The notes below the pieces were generated by a model. The model did no database searches and was not told the DNA's origin. It saw only the letters and a program-made list of their open reading frames with translations. This document shows positions 8,750-21,168 of a DNA stretch of 64,000 bases, in pieces (the stretch's first letter is position 1; the number at the start of each line of letters is the position of its first letter). The stretch is from assembly GCF_042231735.1 (NCBI RefSeq), contig NZ_CP102577.1:2783281-2847280 (forward strand), read 5' to 3'. This DNA comes from Corallococcus exercitus. Its GTDB lineage: Bacteria > Myxococcota > Myxococcia > Myxococcales > Myxococcaceae. Position numbers and translations under genes: made by a program.

Positions 8750-9817
8750 TCAGTTCTTCGCGCGCTCGTACTGGTGTGGCCACAACACGTCCGAGCGCAG
8801 CTCCTTCGCGGCGCGCAGCGGCCAGTACGGATCCCTCAGCAGCTCCCGCGCGATGATGACCAGGTCCGCCTGCCCCGTGGCCAGGATGTGCTCGGCCTGG
8901 AACGCGGAGCGGATCATCCCCACCGCGCCCGTCAGCACGCCCGCCTCCTTGCGCACCTTCTCCGCCAGGTGCGTCTGGTAGCCCGGCCCCACCGGGATCT
9001 TCGCGGACGGCACCACGCCGCCCGACGAGCAGTCGATGAGGTCCACGCCCTCCTTCGCCACCAGCCTGGCCAGCGCCACGGAGTCCTCCGGCGTCCAGCC
9101 TCCGTCCACCCAGTCCGTCGCGGAGATGCGCATGAACAGCGGCAGCGACTCCGGCCACTTCGCCCGCACCGCGCGCGTCACCTCCAGCGCGAAGCGCGTC
9201 CGGTTCTCGAACGTGCCGCCGTACCTGTCCGTCCGCTTGTTCGACAGCGGAGACAGGAACTCGTGCAGCAGGTAGCCGTGCGCCGCGTGCAGCTCGATGA
9301 CCTGGAAGCCCGCCGCCTTCGCCCGCACCGCCGAGTCCGCGAACGCCTTCACGATGCGCTGGATGCCCGCCTCGTCCAGCGCCACCGGCACGGGATAGCC
9401 CTCCTCGAAGGCCTCCGTCGTCGGCCCCAGCACCGTCCAGCCGCCATGCTCCGGCTCCACGCGCTTGCCCGCGTCCCATGGGCGGGGCGTGGAGGCCTTG
9501 CGTCCCGCGTGCGCCAGCTGGACGCCTGACGCGGCCCCGTTCTGGTGCATGAAGCGGTTGATGCGCGCCAACTGCTCCACGTGCGCGTCCTTCCACAGCC
9601 CCAGGTCCTGCGGCGAGATGCGGCCCTCCGGCTCCACCGCCGTCGCCTCCGTCAACACCAGCCCCGCGCCCCCCACCGCGCGGCTGCCCAGGTGCACCAC
9701 GTGCCACTCGTTCGCGAAGCCGTCCTCGCTCGAGTACATGCACATGGGCGAGACCACCACGCGGTTGCGCATGGTGATGTCCCGCAGCTTCAGGGGGGTG
9801 AACAGCTTGCTGCTCAT
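8750..9817 (-). CDS. NADPH dehydrogenase / NADH:flavin oxidoreductase (Old Yellow Enzyme, YqjM/NamA-like)
   Basis: OYE signature regions (MCMYSS, HAAHGYLLHEFLSP, RTDRYGG). Confidence 0.9.
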   Translation of the reverse strand: MSSKLFTPLKLRDITMRNRVVVSPMCMYSSEDGFANEWHVVHLGSRAVGGAGLVLTEATAVEPEGRISPQDLGLWKDAHVEQLARINRFMHQNGAASGVQLAHAGRKASTPRPWDAGKRVEPEHGGWTVLGPTTEAFEEGYPVPVALDEAGIQRIVKAFADSAVRAKAAGFQVIELHAAHGYLLHEFLSPLSNKRTDRYGGTFENRTRFALEVTRAVRAKWPESLPLFMRISATDWVDGGWTPEDSVALARLVAKEGVDLIDCSSGGVVPSAKIPVGPGYQTHLAEKVRKEAGVLTGAVGMIRSAFQAEHILATGQADLVIIARELLRDPYWPLRAAKELRSDVLWPHQYERAKN

Positions 9818-13038: not shown

Positions 13039-14454
13039 GTGCGGTATGAGCAGAGCGTGCCGCTCCCCCGCTTCCGCCATCACCTGTCCGTCCTCGCCGT
13101 GGCCCTGACGGGCCTGGCCGCCCCCGTGGCCCACGCCGACGAGGACCTGCCTGTGTCCGAGCTCCACCGCCCCCAGGTGGCGGAGGTGACGGTGGAGGGC
13201 GCGAACAAGACGACGTCCTCGACGGTGCGCGCGTTCGGGCAGCTGGACGTGGGCGACGAGGTGGACGGCGAGGAGCTGGAGAAGGTGGAGCGGCGGCTGC
13301 TGGCCACGGGGCTGTTCCAGGACGTGCGCGCGAGCACGGAGCCCATGGCCGACGGACGCGTGCGGCTGGTGCTGCGGGTGAAGGACAAGGCGTCGTGGGT
13401 GGTGGCCCCCACGGTGGCGCTGTCCTCCGCGAACACCGGCGGCGGGCTGCTCTACGCGGAGAACAACCTGGGCGGCCGCGCGAAGAAGCTCGCCGTCGCG
13501 GCGCAGGTGAGCACCGGCGAGAGCGGCGTGTACGTGGGCTTCCTGGATCCCATCGTCTTCGGCCTGCCGCAGCTCAAGTTCAGCCTGGAGGGACAGCTCA
13601 AGAGCGACCGCGTGGACGAGTACCGTCCGGACGCCAACCAGGACGACCCGGAGATCCTCCGGCGCACGCGCTTCAACTCGGCGTCCCTCAGCTCCGAGCT
13701 GGGCTTCATCCTCTTCGAGCGCGTGCGCGCGGCGGCGAAGTACCGCGTGTCCAGCATCGACGCGCGGGCGCCGGACCCCGAGAAGCCGGTGACGACGCAG
13801 GCCTTCTCCACCGGCCCTTCCCTGCGCGACACGTCGCTGCGCTTCATGGTGGGACTGGACTCGCGCCAGACGCTGCACGCGGTGACGGAGGGGCTCAACC
13901 TGGAGGGCTCCTACGAGGTGTCCGTCCCGGGCGTGTGGAGCGAGTTCCGCTACCGCAAGTTCGGCATCCTCTACCGCCACGGCCTGCGCTTCTTCAGCGA
14001 GAACAACCTGGTGCTGCGCGGGGAGCTGGCCGTGGGCAAGGACCTGCCCTTCCACCAGGAGCTGGTGATGGGCGGCACCACGCTGCGCGGCTTCCAGTAC
14101 CGGCAGTTCCGCGGCGACACGCGGGTCACCTTCACCGCCGAGTACCACTTCCCTCTCTTCAAGGTGAAGTCGCTGGCCTTCCGGGGCCTGGGCTTCTCCG
14201 ACACGGGCGTCATCGCGTGGCGCGACCTGCCCTCGGACGGGCTGCTGCGCGACGCCAGCGGACGCGTCATCCGCGGCTACCTGCCGCAGACGATGGCGAG
14301 CCAGAACTCCGCGACCCTGGCCCAGGGCGTGGGCGCGGGCCTGCGGCTGTACCTCAACAACGTCGTGCTGCCCCTGCTGGGGGTGGACGTCGCCTACGGG
14401 GTCAACTCCGGCCAGGTGCGCTTCTACCTCGTGGCCGGAGTCACGCCTTCCTGA
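13039..14454 (+). CDS. Omp85/BamA-family outer-membrane beta-barrel protein with one POTRA domain
   Basis: Signal peptide, a POTRA-like segment (VAEVTVEGANKT...LLATGLFQDV...VRLVLRVKDK), and a barrel-start motif (ENNLGGRAKKL). Confidence 0.7.
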   Translation: MRYEQSVPLPRFRHHLSVLAVALTGLAAPVAHADEDLPVSELHRPQVAEVTVEGANKTTSSTVRAFGQLDVGDEVDGEELEKVERRLLATGLFQDVRASTEPMADGRVRLVLRVKDKASWVVAPTVALSSANTGGGLLYAENNLGGRAKKLAVAAQVSTGESGVYVGFLDPIVFGLPQLKFSLEGQLKSDRVDEYRPDANQDDPEILRRTRFNSASLSSELGFILFERVRAAAKYRVSSIDARAPDPEKPVTTQAFSTGPSLRDTSLRFMVGLDSRQTLHAVTEGLNLEGSYEVSVPGVWSEFRYRKFGILYRHGLRFFSENNLVLRGELAVGKDLPFHQELVMGGTTLRGFQYRQFRGDTRVTFTAEYHFPLFKVKSLAFRGLGFSDTGVIAWRDLPSDGLLRDASGRVIRGYLPQTMASQNSATLAQGVGAGLRLYLNNVVLPLLGVDVAYGVNSGQVRFYLVAGVTPS

Positions 14455-14464
14455 GGCGGCCCGC

Positions 14465-15421
14465 TCAGCTGGCGCGGGCGTTGACGCCCACGTCCGCGGC
14501 CGGAGCCGGAAGCACCACGCCGGGCCACGACTCCGGCGGCAGCGTCAGGCTGAACGGCGGCGCCTCGCCGAGCACCGTCCGCCACAGCGCCTTGTCCGCG
14601 CACAGCGCCTGGGCGATGCGGCCGGACGTCGTGCGCACGCGCTCCACGACGGCCTGGTACTCCTCGGGCGTCTGCGCCTCCAGCATCGCGACGACGTTCT
14701 CCCAGACGCGCTGCCGCCAGACGATGAGCATCTGCATGACGGCCCGCTCCACCACGGGGCGGCTGAAGGGCACCTTCAGCAGCAGCTTCGTGGAGGTGCA
14801 GCGATAGCGCTCGGCGAGCAGGTCCAGGCACTCCGGGATGCACGAGCGGAGGATCTCGTTCACGTGGAAGTAGTCGTGCCGGTAGCGCGCCAGGCGGCGC
14901 GCATCCGCCGGCGGGGACTGGTGCGCGATGTTGTCGTAGACGACCATTCCCAGGTCGTGGTTGATGTGGGCGCTCACGCCCAGGAGCGCGTCCTGATACG
15001 GCTGCGTGAGTCCCTGGGCGGGATAGTGCGTCGCGAAGCGCCACGCCGCGGTGGGCAGCGGCAGGTTCTTCAGCGAGTCGCGCACCGCGATGAGCGCCTC
15101 TTCCGCGAAGCGGCCCGTCAGGTGCGACAGCCACTCGGGCTCGAGGAAGCCGCCCGCGTCCGGCCTGCTCAGCAGGTGGACGACCTTCCGGGTGACGATG
15201 GCGTAGATGTCCAGGAAGATGGCGCGTGAGTCATTGCGCGCGTTCAGCCGGCCGAGGATCTTCTCCAGCCCCTCCAGCGCCTCCTCGGCGTTGACGGGGT
15301 TCCAGAGCACGTCATCCAGCTGGATGGGTCCCTGCGCATCCGGCGCCTTCGTCTCGTGGAGGTGGACGGGCTTCGAACGCTGCTTGCGAGGGGACAGGGA
15401 AGAGGCCGGTGAAACAGTCAT
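14465..15421 (-). CDS. hypothetical protein
   Basis: 319-aa ORF starting at MTVSPASS. High GC3. No motif recognised. Confidence 0.5.
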   Translation of the reverse strand: MTVSPASSLSPRKQRSKPVHLHETKAPDAQGPIQLDDVLWNPVNAEEALEGLEKILGRLNARNDSRAIFLDIYAIVTRKVVHLLSRPDAGGFLEPEWLSHLTGRFAEEALIAVRDSLKNLPLPTAAWRFATHYPAQGLTQPYQDALLGVSAHINHDLGMVVYDNIAHQSPPADARRLARYRHDYFHVNEILRSCIPECLDLLAERYRCTSTKLLLKVPFSRPVVERAVMQMLIVWRQRVWENVVAMLEAQTPEEYQAVVERVRTTSGRIAQALCADKALWRTVLGEAPPFSLTLPPESWPGVVLPAPAADVGVNARAS

Positions 15422-15580
15422 GGAATGACGCTCCGCGGGGTGGGGGAACGACTTCGCATGAAAGCTTATATCAACCTGTACTTCCTGTGACACCAGCCCA
15501 CCCCGGAAGCGGCGAACCGTTTCAACAAGCCCCCGCGTGTCGACACTCACGCGAGGGCTTTTGTCACACCGTCGTCAAAC

Positions 15581-16834
15581 TCAGGGCGCGGTGCCTTCGC
15601 TGACGGTGCCGCCCGTCTTGCCCAGGACGTACTTCGCCAGGGACAGGGCGTTGTTCTCGTCGACGAGCGTCTCGTAGGTGGGCATCTGCGTGCCGGGCTT
15701 GAAGGACTCCGGGTTGCGGATCCACTTGGCCACTTCCTCGGGGGCCTTGCCCTTGGCGCCCTGGAGCTTGGCCTCGTAGGCCTTGCCGGGGGCGTGGCAG
15801 GTCGCGCAGCCCAGGGCGCTGAACATCTTCTCCGGGTCGTTGGTGGGCTCCGCCTTGGGGCGGCCACCGGCGGGGGGCGGCACCACCTTGTCGTTGGGCT
15901 TCATGGAGCGCAGGAAGGTGTAGAGGGCCGTGAGCTCCGCGTCGTCCGCGTAGCGGTACTTGGGCATGGGGGCGCGCAGGATGTAGCCCCCGGGCGTCAC
16001 GCCCGTGCGCATGGCCAGGATGAACTCATCCAGCGTCCACTTGCCGATGCCGGCCGTCTCGCTGACGGTGATGTTGGGCGACAGCAGCTTGCCCTCGCCG
16101 CCCAGCGGCGTCAGGTCGAACTCGAAGCCGCCGCTCAGCACGGTGTCCGGGTGCTGCAGCTTCACCGCGCTGCCGTCGAAGCCCGGCGAGTGGCAGAAGA
16201 CGCAGTCGTAGACGCTGCCGGCCAGGTAGCGGCCGTACTCCACGGAGTCCGCCGCCTTCGCGGGCACGGGCACCGGCTCCGTGCGGCCCTTGTCGTTGAT
16301 GCCCATGGCGAACGCGAACACCATGCGGCCCGGGGGCGTCAGCTCGGAGCGCGGCGGCTGCTGCTTCTCCGGCGCGAAGTCCGGGTGCCCGGAGCGCATG
16401 AAGCCGATGACCGCCGCGATGTCCTTGTCACCCATGTTGGGGAACGCGGGCATGGGGCGGAAGTGGTGGCTCTTGTCGATGCCGTTGATCACCATGCGGG
16501 CGATCTCCTGGTCCGTCCAGGCCCCCACGCCCTTCTCCGGGTCGGACGTGATGTTCGCCGAGTAGAACGTGCCCAGGTCGGGCGGGAAGTCGTGCATCCG
16601 AACGCCCACGGGCTTGGTGTTGCCACCGCCCGCGTGACACTCGGCACACACCGCGCGGAAGACCTGCTCACCGCGGGCAATGCCCTCCGGCGAGGTGTCG
16701 CGCGTGATGTTGGGCAGCGCCACGTAGTCATACGACTTGTTGATCTTGTGGGTGGCCACGCCCATGGCGGTACCCGCGCCAATCAAGACCAGGGCGACCA
16801 GCACTCCAATGGCCAGCAGGATCTTCTTCATCAT
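15581..16834 (-). CDS. membrane-anchored triheme cytochrome c. It resembles the cytochrome subunit of membrane-bound flavoprotein or PQQ dehydrogenases.
   Basis: N-terminal TM helix (MMKKILLAIGVLVALVLIGAG) and three CxxCH motifs (CAECH, CVFCH, CATCH) spaced like AdhB/GADH cytochrome subunits. Confidence 0.8.
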   Translation of the reverse strand: MMKKILLAIGVLVALVLIGAGTAMGVATHKINKSYDYVALPNITRDTSPEGIARGEQVFRAVCAECHAGGGNTKPVGVRMHDFPPDLGTFYSANITSDPEKGVGAWTDQEIARMVINGIDKSHHFRPMPAFPNMGDKDIAAVIGFMRSGHPDFAPEKQQPPRSELTPPGRMVFAFAMGINDKGRTEPVPVPAKAADSVEYGRYLAGSVYDCVFCHSPGFDGSAVKLQHPDTVLSGGFEFDLTPLGGEGKLLSPNITVSETAGIGKWTLDEFILAMRTGVTPGGYILRAPMPKYRYADDAELTALYTFLRSMKPNDKVVPPPAGGRPKAEPTNDPEKMFSALGCATCHAPGKAYEAKLQGAKGKAPEEVAKWIRNPESFKPGTQMPTYETLVDENNALSLAKYVLGKTGGTVSEGTAP

Positions 16835-16933
16835 GGGGAATGTTGCTCCGGACGAACGGGGACGAAACACGGACGCTCCGTCCTCCCCACGGGGAGGGGG
16901 AACGGAGCGCAGGCGCTGAGACGGGTGCGGCGG

Positions 16934-18061
16934 CTACTGCCCGGGCACGCAGGTGCTGGGCGGGGGAATGGAGGGCGTCGCCGAGGGGACCGCGGGCGCC
17001 ATCTGCAGGCCCGCGAACGTGACGAGCCCCGGGATCTGCGGGAGCTCCAGCGGCTGCAGCGACCAGGGACGGTTCTCCGCCGCGCTCGTCGTGGCGTCCT
17101 TCGCCGTGTACGTCACGTTGCCCGGAGGCCCCATGAGCGGCGGGTGGACGATGGCCACCAGGCCCAGGCTGCTGTGGGGCGCGGGCGGACCCGGCGCGAT
17201 GAAGAAGCCGCGCGTGGACTGCAGGGCCGCGACCGGCGGCGGCAGCGGCGCGCCGACGGGTGCCCACTCGATGTTGAGCACGCGGCCGGACGAGGCCTCC
17301 ACGGTGGTGTTGGGCGCGGGCACGCGGAACACCGGGAAGCCCGGCTGGTACAGCCAGAAGACCGTGATGCCGCCGAAGCGGCCCGGGTTGAGCAGGTCCG
17401 CCACCGTCACGGACGTGCCCTCGGAGGACAGGTACTTCGCCACCGCCTCCAGGATGCCCTTGTCGCTCACCTGGAGCGCTTCCAGGCCCACGCACGCGCT
17501 GTGCGCCGGCACCACCGGCCGGATGGTCAACGTGGGCAGGTAGTTGCCCTCCGGCACGGGCGGCAGCGGGAACGGCGCCGGCACGTCGTTGGCCAGGGAG
17601 GGCGGAGTGGGCAGCGTGGGCAGCGAGCCCAGGGAGAGGACGAAGAACGGCGGCCCCCGGCGCGTGGGCACCTTGTCCAGGGTCCACAGGCCGGCGGCGC
17701 TGGACAGCGTGGGCGGTGCCGGGTCGGGCGGCCGGCCCGTCGCCGGGTCCGGCACCGTGTCCTGCAGGGTGATGGGCGCGTTGCGCACCACCGCGCGCTG
17801 CAAGAGCGGGCTGAACTCCGCGTACAGCGGCGGCAGCGCGCACCGCGCGGGCGGCGGCGCGCAGTTGGCCAGGTTGATGAAGTAGGCCTCCGGGTCCACC
17901 GTGAAGCCCGTCAGCCGGGAGGTGAGGCCCGCCGGCTCGCGGTTCTCATAGGTGGGGCGCGGCGTGAAGGTGGACGACGCGGGGGAGTTGGAGGATTCCG
18001 TGCAGCCGGCGTTCAGCACGGCCGCGCCGAGCAGCGTTCCGACGAAGAGGGCTTTTTGCAT
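16934..18061 (-). CDS. Pro-rich lipoprotein of unknown function
   Basis: Lipobox LNAGC after the signal peptide. About 375 aa, very Pro-rich. It sits between the two cytochrome genes, with 15 bp to the upstream gene. Confidence 0.6.
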   Translation of the reverse strand: MQKALFVGTLLGAAVLNAGCTESSNSPASSTFTPRPTYENREPAGLTSRLTGFTVDPEAYFINLANCAPPPARCALPPLYAEFSPLLQRAVVRNAPITLQDTVPDPATGRPPDPAPPTLSSAAGLWTLDKVPTRRGPPFFVLSLGSLPTLPTPPSLANDVPAPFPLPPVPEGNYLPTLTIRPVVPAHSACVGLEALQVSDKGILEAVAKYLSSEGTSVTVADLLNPGRFGGITVFWLYQPGFPVFRVPAPNTTVEASSGRVLNIEWAPVGAPLPPPVAALQSTRGFFIAPGPPAPHSSLGLVAIVHPPLMGPPGNVTYTAKDATTSAAENRPWSLQPLELPQIPGLVTFAGLQMAPAVPSATPSIPPPSTCVPGQ

Positions 18062-18076
18062 GGCGGGTCGCATCCC

Positions 18077-19987
18077 CTACTTCGCGGGGAGGATGTGGCC
18101 GGCGGGGAGCTGCTCGCCGCCGTGGCACGTCTGCGCGCAGTTGCCGAACTTGCTGGGCGTGCCGCGCTGGTTGAAGGCGATCTGGAAGAACTCGTCCCCG
18201 TGCTGGGAGATGTGGCACGAGCCGCACAGCGCCAGGCTGGGCCGCTCCGTGCTCTTGCGCGTCAGGTGGCACACGGTGCAGTCCGCGCGGTTCGCCGGGT
18301 AGCTGGGCGAGTTCATGTGGATGCGGTGCACCATCTCCTGCGTGCGGCCCACCGTGTCCGTGTCGTAGTGGTGGCAGACCTTGCAGCTCTCGATGTGGTC
18401 CACCGACAGGCCGTGGCGCAGGTTGTCCAGCGACAGCACGCCGCGGTGGCAGATCTGGCAGTTGCCCACGTTGCCCGGGTACGTCGTGGGCTCGTCCTGG
18501 CCCACCTGGAAGAAGAACGGGTTCAGCTTCGCGACGCGCTCGCCCATGGACGCGCGGTTGAACTTCACCAGCGCCACGTAGGTGCCCGGCTTCGCGTCCG
18601 GGGGCAGCGTGAACGTCTGGCGCGTGGGCCACTTGTAGTCCATCAGGCCCGGCGTCAGGCCCGTGAGCGTGGCGTCATCCAGGAACGCGAACGGGAACGG
18701 CTTGGCGAAGAACTGGGGCTTGTCGCTGGGGTTGCCCAGCACCTGGAGGTCCTGGAGCGGGCCGGCGATGGCCACGTTGGAGATGGAGTCGTTCTCCGTG
18801 ACGGTCGCGATGACGTTGGGGACGAACGTCTGGATGCCGTTGGCCTGGCCGCTGATGATCTCCTTCGCGCTGGGCAGCAGGTCCTTGGAGTGCAGGTGGG
18901 CGCCCGCGCTGTCGCGCAGGTCCACGTAGACGCTCACGTCCTCGCCGGGCTTGTAGAAGCTGCCCTCCTTCGGGGGAGCGAACACCAGCCGCGAGTCCAG
19001 GCCCGGGCTGCACTGCACCGGGTTGCCGGCGTCGTCGGTGCAGGTGGAGGGGCGCTCATCCGGGATGACGTACGTCACCGGGAAGTAGAACGGCTTGTCC
19101 GGCAGCTGGCTCCAGGTGGCCTTGAGCGCGCCGGGGCCCGACAGGCGCGGGATGCGCAGCACCTTGAAGGGGTTGGTGCTGCCCACCATGTCCACGCGCG
19201 CGATGGTGCGCGTGATGGCGCTCTGGTCCAGGCCGCCCGGGAAGCCCGCCACGGTGCCGGGGTCCTTGTCACCGGGGAAGCGCGGCGGCTTGAGGTTCTC
19301 CGAACGCCAGGAGAAGCGGCTGTGGCCGGCGTAGGGGGACGACGCCAGCAGCTCCGAGCGCAGGTAGGTCTGGCTGGCGCGCGAGGTGCCCGTCTCGTCC
19401 AGCACCTCCACGGTGATGGTGTCGTCCTTCACCTTCTGCCAGTTCGCGTTGCCGAACTGCACCTCGCGGGTCCAGCAGTCCTCCACGGCGCCGGCGAGGC
19501 TGTAGAAGCTCCACTCGTCCGGGCCCTGGTTGACGTTGCCCCAGTCCAGGCCCGCGAACACGGACTGGTTCTTGATCCACCCGAGCGCGGCGGTCTGGTC
19601 GTTGGGGTTGTTGTGCTGGTTGACCACGGTCTCCGAGACGGAGAACTGGTTCAGGAAGTACTGGTTGTCCGAGAGGATCTGCAGCGTCCCGGTGGGAGGC
19701 GACAGCGTCAGCGGGTTCTGCGCGAGCGGCGTGATGCACACGTCCGGGTACGGGACGGGCACGCCGTTCTTCGCCACCATCTGCCCGTTGGGCAGGAAGG
19801 CGCAGCCATTGATGTACTGGAGGCTGAGCCGGATCGCGCCGGAGTTGAGCCCCTGGTAGGGGTCGAACCGCTTGGCGCCGCGACCCGTGGTGGACCCCTC
19901 GTCGTCAGTGACCTTGAGGAGGTTGCAGGACAGCAGGGGCACCAGCAGGGCGCACCACGCGCTCTTCAACAGGATTGAGCGATTCAT
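18077..19987 (-). CDS. penta-heme c-type cytochrome lipoprotein
   Basis: Lipoprotein signal (LLSC). Five heme-binding motifs are clustered in the last ~130 aa (CQICH, CKVCH, CTVCH, CGSCH, CAQTCH). The ~480-aa N-terminal domain is of unknown fold. Confidence 0.8.
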   Translation of the reverse strand: MNRSILLKSAWCALLVPLLSCNLLKVTDDEGSTTGRGAKRFDPYQGLNSGAIRLSLQYINGCAFLPNGQMVAKNGVPVPYPDVCITPLAQNPLTLSPPTGTLQILSDNQYFLNQFSVSETVVNQHNNPNDQTAALGWIKNQSVFAGLDWGNVNQGPDEWSFYSLAGAVEDCWTREVQFGNANWQKVKDDTITVEVLDETGTSRASQTYLRSELLASSPYAGHSRFSWRSENLKPPRFPGDKDPGTVAGFPGGLDQSAITRTIARVDMVGSTNPFKVLRIPRLSGPGALKATWSQLPDKPFYFPVTYVIPDERPSTCTDDAGNPVQCSPGLDSRLVFAPPKEGSFYKPGEDVSVYVDLRDSAGAHLHSKDLLPSAKEIISGQANGIQTFVPNVIATVTENDSISNVAIAGPLQDLQVLGNPSDKPQFFAKPFPFAFLDDATLTGLTPGLMDYKWPTRQTFTLPPDAKPGTYVALVKFNRASMGERVAKLNPFFFQVGQDEPTTYPGNVGNCQICHRGVLSLDNLRHGLSVDHIESCKVCHHYDTDTVGRTQEMVHRIHMNSPSYPANRADCTVCHLTRKSTERPSLALCGSCHISQHGDEFFQIAFNQRGTPSKFGNCAQTCHGGEQLPAGHILPAK

Positions 19988-20223
19988 GGAAGACGAGGCC
20001 GGAGGCAGGCAGGGGGAGGAAAGGGAGCAGGTGTCCTCACGCGCGGGCCCACGCGTCCCACCCTTCCCGACGCCGCCAGCGCTCCGCCACGCGGAGACGG
20101 TGAGGCCCGGTAAGGGTTGGGAGGAGAACACCTCATCGGTTCAAACTGACCACATTATGAGAGTCCGCGCAATTCGTGGACTTCAGATCGCGCAGGGGGG
20201 CTGAGTGCCCGCCGCCGCCTGAC

Positions 20224-21168
20224 TCAGGGCGTCGTCCGGGGCCAGAAGCTGAGGCCCGCGGACAGGAGCAGCGCGAAGACGAGCCCCAGCGCCGCGGTCT
20301 TCCCCAGGTGCGGGTTGAGCGCGCTGCCGTCCTCCCTCCAGATGGCGCGGATCTGCTTCACCGCGAGTGGCAGGGCCGCCAGCGGGAAGAGCCAGCCGCC
20401 CGCGTGCTCCGGCAGCAACAGCCAGGCGAGCACCGGGAGCACGAACGCGCCTCCCACCGCCAGCGTGTACTCCCACTGCCCGAAGCGCTGGCCGAAGCGC
20501 ACCACGAGCGTGCGCTTGCCGGCGACGACGTCCGTCTTGCGGTCGCGCAGGTTGTTCACCGCGAGGATGCCGGCGGAGAACAGCCCCATGGACAGCCCCG
20601 CCAGCCACACGGCCGGCGTGACGTGGTGGGTGAGCACGACGTAGCTGCCGCTCACCCCCAGGAGCCCGAAGATGATCAGCACCAGCACGTCCCCCAGCCC
20701 CAGGTAGCCCAGGGGGATGGGGCCCGCGGAGTAGAAGACCGCGCCCGCCAGACAGAAGGCGCCGCCCGCGAACACCGGCCACCCTTCCGCCTGCGTCAAG
20801 AGCAGCAGCGCGAGCGAGGAGCCCGTGAACGCCAGCGCCGCGGCCGTCGCCACCTCGCGCGCGGACAGCCAGCCCTTCTGCGTGACGCGCGCGGGCCCCA
20901 GGCGCGCCTCGGTGTCCGCGCCGCGCTCGAAGTCCGCGTAGTCGTTCACCAGGTTGCTGACGATCTGCATGAGCACGAAGCCCACCAGGAACGTGAGCGC
21001 GGGCACCGGCCGCCAGCTGCCCTCCGCGTTGGCGAAGGCCCAGCCCAGCACCGTGGGCGCGACGGAAGCGGTCAGCGTCTTGGGCCGCAGCGCGAGCCAC
21101 CAGATGCGGGCCAGAGGGGGTTTGGCTTCGAGCGCGACACTCGACGACGGGAGACTCGGGGTGGCCAT
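20224..21168 (-). CDS. menA: 1,4-dihydroxy-2-naphthoate polyprenyltransferase (UbiA family)
   Basis: UbiA prenyltransferase Asp-rich motif (NDYADFERG), ~9 TM helices, 314 aa. Confidence 0.8.
   Translation of the reverse strand: MATPSLPSSSVALEAKPPLARIWWLALRPKTLTASVAPTVLGWAFANAEGSWRPVPALTFLVGFVLMQIVSNLVNDYADFERGADTEARLGPARVTQKGWLSAREVATAAALAFTGSSLALLLLTQAEGWPVFAGGAFCLAGAVFYSAGPIPLGYLGLGDVLVLIIFGLLGVSGSYVVLTHHVTPAVWLAGLSMGLFSAGILAVNNLRDRKTDVVAGKRTLVVRFGQRFGQWEYTLAVGGAFVLPVLAWLLLPEHAGGWLFPLAALPLAVKQIRAIWREDGSALNPHLGKTAALGLVFALLLSAGLSFWPRTTP

Follow-up and report, generated by a model that had tools for sequence, protein, structure and literature searches.

We analysed a 64,000-nt stretch of the Corallococcus exercitus genome (assembly GCF_042231735.1, contig NZ_CP102577.1, forward-strand positions 2,783,281 to 2,847,280; hereafter the window), and in it three consecutive genes encoding a 636-aa haem lipoprotein (cyt5), a proline-rich lipoprotein (partner) and a trihaem cytochrome c (cyt3), which we refer to together as the cassette, as well as the menA gene upstream of them (Table 1). 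The GC content of this region is about 70% and long open reading frames (ORFs) occur on both strands; the coding strand was settled as the minus strand because GC at third codon positions (GC3) is 0.96-0.98 in the menA, cyt5, partner and cyt3 ORFs, all of which lie there. A 1394-aa ORF on the plus strand (15794-19978), with a GC content of 0.965 at codon position 1, was rejected as an antisense shadow of three real genes, a high-GC artefact. The gap between menA and cyt5 is 236 nt, that between partner and cyt3 99 nt, and that between cyt5 and partner 15 nt with the partner start at ATG 18061, or 3 nt with an alternative ATG at 18073, four codons upstream. ORF, motif and profile checks bore out the gene content, the lipoprotein and anchor predictions and the haem counts given in a preliminary description of this DNA, with one nuance concerning a haem motif of cyt5, and its gaps of 15 and 99 bp were reproduced.

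Table 1. Features of the cassette and its surroundings (positions within the window).
Feature	Position	Strand	Basis
menA paralogue (1,4-dihydroxy-2-naphthoate polyprenyltransferase), 314 aa	20224-21168	-	TIGR00751, PF01040
Conserved block upstream of cyt5	19988-20185	-	near-invariance across Corallococcus loci
cyt5, 636-aa pentahaem c-type cytochrome lipoprotein	18077-19987	-	GC3 0.98, five haem motifs
cyt5 N-terminal beta-sandwich array (~aa 45-500)	18488-19855	-	AlphaFold2 model
cyt5 C-terminal pentahaem domain (~aa 505-636), MtrC/MtrF domain II/IV-like	18080-18475	-	PF22113 (below cut-off), PDB profile matches
partner, 375-aa haem-free proline-rich lipoprotein	16934-18061	-	lipobox Cys, directly after cyt5
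GC-rich hairpin between the partner gene and cyt3	16874-16910	-	covarying arms
cyt3, 417-aa trihaem class-I cytochrome c with N-terminal anchor	15581-16834	-	PF13442, PF00034, PDB homology
DUF5995 gene, downstream of cyt3	14465-15550	-	PF19458 at 1.4e-46

The cyt5 protein starts with a signal peptide and the lipobox LLSC (…LLVPLLSC; Cys21), and its haem motifs CQICH, CKVCH, CTVCH, CGSCH and CAQTCH, starting at residues 510, 535, 570, 588 and 617, all lie within residues 510-622. The previously reported number of five haem c sites was correct, but not their uniform assignment to CXXCH, since the fifth (CAQTCH) is a CX3CH site, giving four CXXCH and one CXXXCH motifs in total. Poor conservation of these motifs in orthologues, which the preliminary description had named as possible counter-evidence, was not observed. 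In an alignment of 52 cyt5 homologues reaching down to 40% identity the five haem motifs were invariant, together with the lipobox Cys21 and five candidate distal histidines (H525, H554, H557, H596 and H631). The pattern of four CXXCH plus one CXXXCH was likewise kept in 68 of 68 cyt5 copies from 67 loci, a set composed of 61 genome loci and loci from an exact look-up, which we annotated by tblastn with the window proteins, the men proteins and a Rieske protein. The presence of five distal His for five haems suggests that the haems of cyt5 are bis-His, six-coordinate and of the electron-transfer type, and the invariance of the motifs and of the distal His suggests that they are functional. As such haems would have no open coordination site, a role in electron transfer rather than in catalysis appears indicated.

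In the AlphaFold2 model of cyt5, residues ~50-500 were predicted with confidence (pLDDT mostly >90) and consisted entirely of beta-strands arranged in several Ig- or macroglobulin-like sandwich domains; the haem domain was poorly predicted, as expected without haems. We found no cofactor motif in this N-terminal region (~aa 45-500) and no overall match of cyt5 among solved structures. The domain singled out for homology and structural follow-up in the preliminary description can now be described as a beta-sandwich array. The C-terminal domain resembled the MtrC family weakly. The cyt5 of the window scored 23.6 bits against PF22113 (MtrC/MtrF domains II/IV; cut-off 30), 31 of the 52 family members matched this model at E<1e-3 (best 2.6e-7), and the family profile retrieved MtrC, OmcA and MtrF chains from the PDB at E 0.0025-0.027. 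Like MtrC, OmcA, MtrF and UndA of the Shewanella outer membrane, cyt5 is a lipoprotein with beta-rich domains. In contrast to the MtrC/OmcA family, whose ten (or eleven) haems are divided between two pentahaem domains (II and IV) interspersed with two beta-barrel domains, it has a single C-terminal pentahaem domain, with all five motifs within aa 510-622, a longer and different N-terminal beta-sandwich array and one CX3CH site. Moreover, the cassette is not accompanied by an MtrA (periplasmic decahaem) or MtrB (porin) partner and includes an obligatory haem-free lipoprotein instead: Pfam scans of all cassette neighbours returned the partner, a class-I cytochrome c, DUF5995 and a convergent Omp85 gene, and no MtrA or MtrB.

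This second lipoprotein, the partner, contains 17.1% proline and an invariant lipobox Cys, had no family match in Pfam or NCBIfam scans, and was modelled (pLDDT 79) as sandwiches of the transthyretin, CnaB or carboxypeptidase-regulatory type; it has no haem and no conserved His or Met suggestive of a cofactor. Its gene directly follows cyt5 in nearly all of the 67 loci, with gaps of 8-30 nt. Using identity matrices for clustering and co-evolution, we found that distances among cyt5 copies and distances among their partners were correlated (r=0.87), with faster evolution in the partner. Thus cyt5 and the partner are the conserved functional core of the cassette, and their products may form a complex. 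The three-gene unit previously proposed is to be modified accordingly, as its cytochrome c component varies in position, haem number and anchoring.

In the window that component is cyt3, which has a single hydrophobic N-terminal helix (aa 5-27, Kyte-Doolittle 2.65) and CXXCH motifs at residues 63, 211 and 343 (spacings of 148 and 132 aa), each followed by an M-P motif. Consistently with its earlier comparison to the cytochrome subunits of dehydrogenases, which was upheld at E-values of 9e-24 to 1.5e-17, cyt3 matched in the PDB the cytochrome subunit of FAD-glucose dehydrogenase (8hdd_B, 9.4e-24), fructose dehydrogenase (7w2j_C, 3e-20) and alcohol dehydrogenase (8gy2_B, 1.5e-17); Pfam and NCBIfam scans yielded class-I cytochrome c models only. 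Homology to Burkholderia FAD-GDH beta, Gluconobacter FDH subunit C and ADH subunit II extends over the first two haem domains, and cyt3 shares with these subunits, which couple to membrane quinone, the three class-I CXXCH...Met units. By this homology cyt3 may be quinone-reactive in the same way, and its quinone would be menaquinone, as opposed to the ubiquinone of the compared dehydrogenases. It differs from those subunits in its weakly related third haem domain, in the use of an N-terminal helix as anchor and in the lack of catalytic subunits nearby; inspection of the window locus and of 67 related loci revealed no dehydrogenase gene. The anchored tetrahaem cytochromes NapC, NirT and CymA have closely spaced bis-His CXXCH motifs, unlike the three widely spaced class-I units of cyt3, which therefore does not belong to that type.

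We then considered menA. Its product matched the MenA equivalog model TIGR00751 at 188.4 bits (cut-off 102.15) and PF01040 (UbiA fold) at 2.2e-33, and orthologues with at least 67% identity were found in Corallococcus-like genomes only, all other homologues having at most 54%. The window contains no other men genes. A 306-aa MenA from a Corallococcus/Citreicoccus strain, encoded in a canonical menF-menD-menH-menA-menC-menE cluster, is 47% identical to the window protein, and cluster-borne MenA proteins share 44-47% identity with it. The canonical cluster is the counterpart of the myxoquinone (mxq) cluster in the literature, in which MenA is MxqL, also of 306 aa (PMC8955186). The cassette and its menA occupy 5.69-5.71 Mb of the C. 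coralloides B035 genome, where the mxq cluster is placed at 5.44-5.48 Mb (PMC8955186 Table S6); in Melittangium the two are at 6.22 Mb (cassette) and 8.33 Mb (mxq cluster; PMC8955186). Since there is a distinct cluster-borne MenA and the coordinates differ from those of the mxq cluster, the window menA is, judging by sequence and map position, an extra paralogue separate from the men/mxq cluster and not the pathway gene. The identity of the gene as a menaquinone prenyltransferase gene and its position upstream of cyt5 on the same strand had been described correctly; what changes is its standing, that of a paralogue rather than the pathway copy.

A word-indexed search of 5.8 billion proteins returned 138 relatives of cyt5, all of ~620-660 aa and all annotated as hypothetical; those with an organism name belonged to Myxococcaceae or Archangiaceae, with the exception of one record labelled Comamonas. 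When 1.84 billion cluster representatives were searched exhaustively with HMMER, only ~15 full-length cyt5 clusters were retrieved, along with a second tier that corresponded to the C-terminal half alone and included members from Pendulispora and from deltaproteobacterial and Planctomycetota metagenome-assembled genomes (MAGs). The partner of the window is 100% identical and its cyt5 97-98% identical to C. exercitus proteins, as expected for DNA of this species or of a very close relative. The full cyt5 family is restricted to Cystobacterineae, where it is common and occurs in Myxococcus, Corallococcus, Archangium, Hyalangium, Melittangium, Pyxidicoccus and other genera, with two or three cassettes in several genomes. 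Such a system had been called unusual for an aerobic myxobacterium, a view that this distribution does not support. The member in M. xanthus DK1622 is MXAN_1612; a literature search found no paper mentioning MXAN_1610-1613 and no description of myxobacterial multihaem lipoproteins. Among the distant relatives with only the C-terminal half, a tandem pair follows a 1287-aa multihaem cytochrome (locus L070, 4057-11957), another lies directly upstream of a TonB-dependent outer-membrane receptor (locus L071, 805-4857), and one, in Pendulispora, is solitary, so that its context was uninformative.

Comparison of the loci revealed that the cytochrome c gene is trihaem with a transmembrane anchor and downstream of the cyt5-partner pair in Corallococcus, trihaem, anchored and upstream of the pair in the Hyalangium type, dihaem with an anchor in the Melittangium type, and a dihaem lipoprotein without a transmembrane helix in the Myxococcus type. 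At some loci the pair has no adjacent cytochrome c of these types, and two of these pair-only loci have other c-type cytochrome genes within ~5 kb. All cassette types with men linkage retain the anchor helix, with no consistent signal-peptidase site. The cyt5 sequences fell into two main groups, and every men-linked locus belonged to that of the window, in three arrangements: menA upstream on the same strand in all ten Corallococcus loci of this type (type A); in Hyalangium versicolor and MAGs, the cassette within a complete shikimate/men cluster, between menF and menD, which overlap in the canonical men cluster; and a menA that precedes the cassette in divergent orientation, joined in one MAG by a downstream menF. 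The menaquinone link put forward in the preliminary description was strengthened by these comparative data. The mxq/menaquinone cluster of Cystobacterineae has the same taxonomic range as the cassette, and it is between its menF and menD that the Hyalangium-type cassette is placed; the described genes mxqA-O do not include those of the cassette, which occupy other genomic positions in Corallococcus, Melittangium and Myxococcus. We also noted in Hyalangium versicolor a SnoaL-like gene (locus L004, 11103-11513, minus strand) co-inserted with the cassette between menF and menD.

In the sister group (Myxococcus, Archangium, Pyxidicoccus and others), a gene for a cytoplasmic oxygenase of the Rieske/VanA type lies immediately upstream of the cassette. 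This Rieske/VanA_C gene was present at locus L001 (5919-6923) of M. xanthus and at 23 other loci throughout the Myxococcus/Archangium clade; its product has no signal peptide, and its closest named model, 4beta-methylsterol monooxygenase, was weakly matched (1.9e-13). Just upstream of the Rieske gene of M. xanthus and near a nonribosomal peptide synthetase (NRPS) gene, we observed a small ORF for an acidic 60-aa product (L001, 5719-5901; …EEIDFLLEEIESKIAPLALA), which could be a peptide precursor.

Analysis of the intergenic regions bore on the extent of the transcription unit. The stretch of ~195 nt that precedes the cyt5 start is nearly invariant across 11 Corallococcus loci with 5-15% difference between their proteins, and contains, in this order, a palindrome, GTCC(R)CG-N5-CGCGGAC, a CATAAT-like (-10-like) box and a GC-rich stretch with possible hairpins, in which four base pairs showed compensatory changes, all from one clade. 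In C. coralloides KYC2213 (locus L012), extra DNA parts menA from this block, which remains with cyt5; the insertion comprises ~540 nt of ORF-like DNA (9235-9800) between menA and the block and was seen in this strain only. The intergenic regions had no Rfam match to a riboswitch or known RNA at E up to 1, a scan with the sigma-70 consensus found no promoters, the cyt5 upstream block included, and terminator-like consensus matches were no more frequent than in shuffled sequence. The pattern of conservation indicates that the block is probably a regulated promoter or leader belonging to cyt5 itself, and it could combine an operator with a structured 5' leader. Between the partner gene and cyt3, the arms of the conserved hairpin covary between Corallococcus clades and the element overlaps a terminator-like match; it may be an attenuator or an mRNA-stabilising element. 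A cyt5-partner-cyt3 transcription unit is plausible but unproven. Because the conserved block stays with cyt5 when menA is displaced, obligatory co-transcription of the cassette with menA is unlikely, and the single menA-adjacent operon of the preliminary description is doubtful given that cyt5 has a conserved upstream block of its own.

Further downstream, the DUF5995 gene was considered as a fifth operon member and rejected, as it follows cyt3 in only part of the Corallococcus loci and a long AT-richer spacer precedes it. Its true start is likely ATG 15421, behind this spacer of ~160 nt, and the gene probably lies outside the unit. Convergent to it we observed an Omp85-family gene with one POTRA domain (13039-14454, plus strand), in a synteny shared with C. 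coralloides B035; that its product helps to handle the lipoproteins is pure speculation.

We propose that the cassette is a menaquinone-coupled electron-transfer module of the cell envelope, a reading to which we give about an even chance, because of the invariant haems, the MtrC-like domain, the resemblance of cyt3 to quinone-reactive subunits, the obligatory partner and the recurrent linkage to men genes. The position of distant C-terminal-half relatives beside a multihaem cytochrome or a TonB-dependent receptor lends this proposal additional support. In such a module, the N-terminal helix of cyt3 would anchor it in the inner membrane, leaving its three His/Met haems in the periplasm, and cyt3 would exchange electrons with the menaquinone/menaquinol pool on one side and with cyt5 on the other, where the five C-terminal bis-His haems would act as an MtrC-like wire on a beta-sandwich scaffold. 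The haem-free partner, in complex with cyt5, would probably be a docking or positioning subunit at the outer membrane, and the extra menA copy would supply or tune the quinone of the module. Lipoproteins of M. xanthus are sorted by a +2 residue rule, which probably places both cyt5 and the partner at the outer membrane. We consider it more likely that electrons would flow outwards, from menaquinol through cyt3 and the cyt5/partner pair to a periplasmic or extracellular acceptor, than inwards. The gene content, the motifs, the homologies, the pairing of the two lipoprotein genes and the linkage to men genes are what the data show, whereas the formation of a complex, its place in the cell, the direction in which electrons move and the nature of the final redox partner are what we infer. 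As a precedent we count the flavin-based extracellular electron-transfer (FLEET) locus of Firmicutes, which carries a gene for a MenA-like enzyme of its own, DmkA, alongside that of a lipoprotein electron carrier (PMC9888254). The cassette shares with FLEET of Listeria and Lactiplantibacillus the genomic logic of a MenA-type DmkA next to a lipoprotein carrier that takes (demethyl)menaquinone electrons outside (PMC9888254). It has no sequence relation to FLEET except for MenA/UbiA and differs from it in having c-type haems as opposed to a flavinylated PplA and in belonging to a Gram-negative envelope; Ndh2, EetA/EetB, FmnB and flavinylated PplA were all absent from the Pfam/NCBIfam matches of the locus.

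Several observations weigh against this proposal. The cyt5 family is known from sequence alone, all its members are annotated as hypothetical and MXAN_1610-1613 appear in no paper found. No porin-like or MtrA/MtrB-like gene is present at the locus for crossing the outer membrane, the pair stands alone at some loci, and the sister clade that includes MXAN_1612 combines the absence of men linkage with a dihaem lipoprotein devoid of a transmembrane helix and an upstream Rieske gene. The apparent own promoter of cyt5 also means that adjacency to menA may not entail co-expression. Other objections concern direction: His/Met haems usually have a higher potential than bis-His haems, so that outward flow from cyt3 to cyt5 could be uphill, and cyt3-type subunits, by homology, normally reduce quinone. 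These last points lead to a serious rival, which we nevertheless judge fairly unlikely, in which cyt5 and the partner would take electrons from an external or periplasmic reductant (Fe(II), reduced humics, hydroquinones or prey-derived compounds) and cyt3 would hand them on to the quinone pool or straight to a terminal oxidase, in the manner of a membrane-tethered cytochrome c. Consistently with inward flow, the closest characterised relatives of cyt3 feed electrons from an enzyme into the quinone pool, passage from a low-potential bis-His wire to higher-potential His/Met haems is thermodynamically natural on general knowledge of haem ligation, and these aerobic organisms have oxidases available. 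However, menaquinone (~-74 mV) accepts electrons poorly from typical His/Met haems, the association with menaquinone synthesis genes is at least as compatible with a quinol donor, and no oxidase gene was found in any locus examined.

The significance of the menA linkage can be read in two further ways. Proximity to menA might be incidental, cyt5 and the partner forming a general periplasmic or outer-membrane haem protein (an electron buffer, a haem or iron store, or a haem adhesin) and cyt3 being an ordinary respiratory cytochrome c. This would agree with the 236-nt gap and the separate promoter-like block, with the many loci devoid of men genes and with the Ig-like and macroglobulin-like domains, which are typical of surface or adhesive proteins; we hold it to be rather unlikely, as three independent men-linked arrangements in one clade would hardly arise by chance, the Corallococcus menA is a lineage-specific paralogue found at this position in every type-A locus, and most loci have a cytochrome c gene beside the pair. 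Conversely, the linkage might reflect quinone chemistry itself, the cassette performing a redox step on the periplasmic face in the maturation, modification or recycling of menaquinone or of hydroxylated myxoquinones, for instance the reductive step that has been proposed for myxoquinone formation and is still missing. The restriction of the cyt5 family to Cystobacterineae coincides with the range reported for producers of myxoquinones, no reductase has been identified in the published pathway (PMC8955186), the cassette sits inside a men/mxq-type cluster in Hyalangium and relatives, and the sister clade is linked to a Rieske oxygenase. Against this, the five haems appear six-coordinate, the two lipoproteins lack both an enzyme-like fold and conserved catalytic residues, the Rieske protein, having no signal peptide, is cytoplasmic, and the published mxq clusters were defined without the cassette genes, which lie ~0.2 Mb from the cluster in C. 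coralloides and ~2 Mb from it in Melittangium; we therefore regard this role as improbable.

The component classes, namely c-type multihaem lipoprotein, class-I trihaem cytochrome and MenA, are already known, while the architecture of cyt5, its obligate partner, the restriction to Cystobacterineae and the recurrent linkage to menaquinone genes do not appear to have been described before. The combination of one MtrC-like pentahaem domain with a beta-sandwich array and with an obligate partner lipoprotein that lacks haem appears to be a new multihaem architecture, and the second MenA of Corallococcus is flagged here as an enzyme that may make a quinone other than the bulk one. In myxobacteria of the Myxococcus group, which serve as models of social predation, respiration has been treated as simple aerobic, menaquinone-dependent electron transport. 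A conserved, multi-copy pentahaem lipoprotein family tied to menaquinone genes suggests unstudied movement of electrons into or out of their envelope, for which MXAN_1611-1613 provide concrete genetic targets in a tractable organism, M. xanthus. At its broadest, and as a long shot, the Cystobacterineae, regarded as strict aerobes, would have an unrecognised, lineage-specific extracellular or envelope electron-transfer system built on a cyt5/partner complex and, where encoded, a membrane cytochrome c as quinol-side module. In some lineages its own menA paralogue would provide a dedicated naphthoquinone pool, as in FLEET, and the myxoquinones, which are unusually water-soluble, would be possible shuttles. 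Paralogous cassettes would then be tuned to different redox partners in swarming, in predation and in the oxygen-limited life of the fruiting body.

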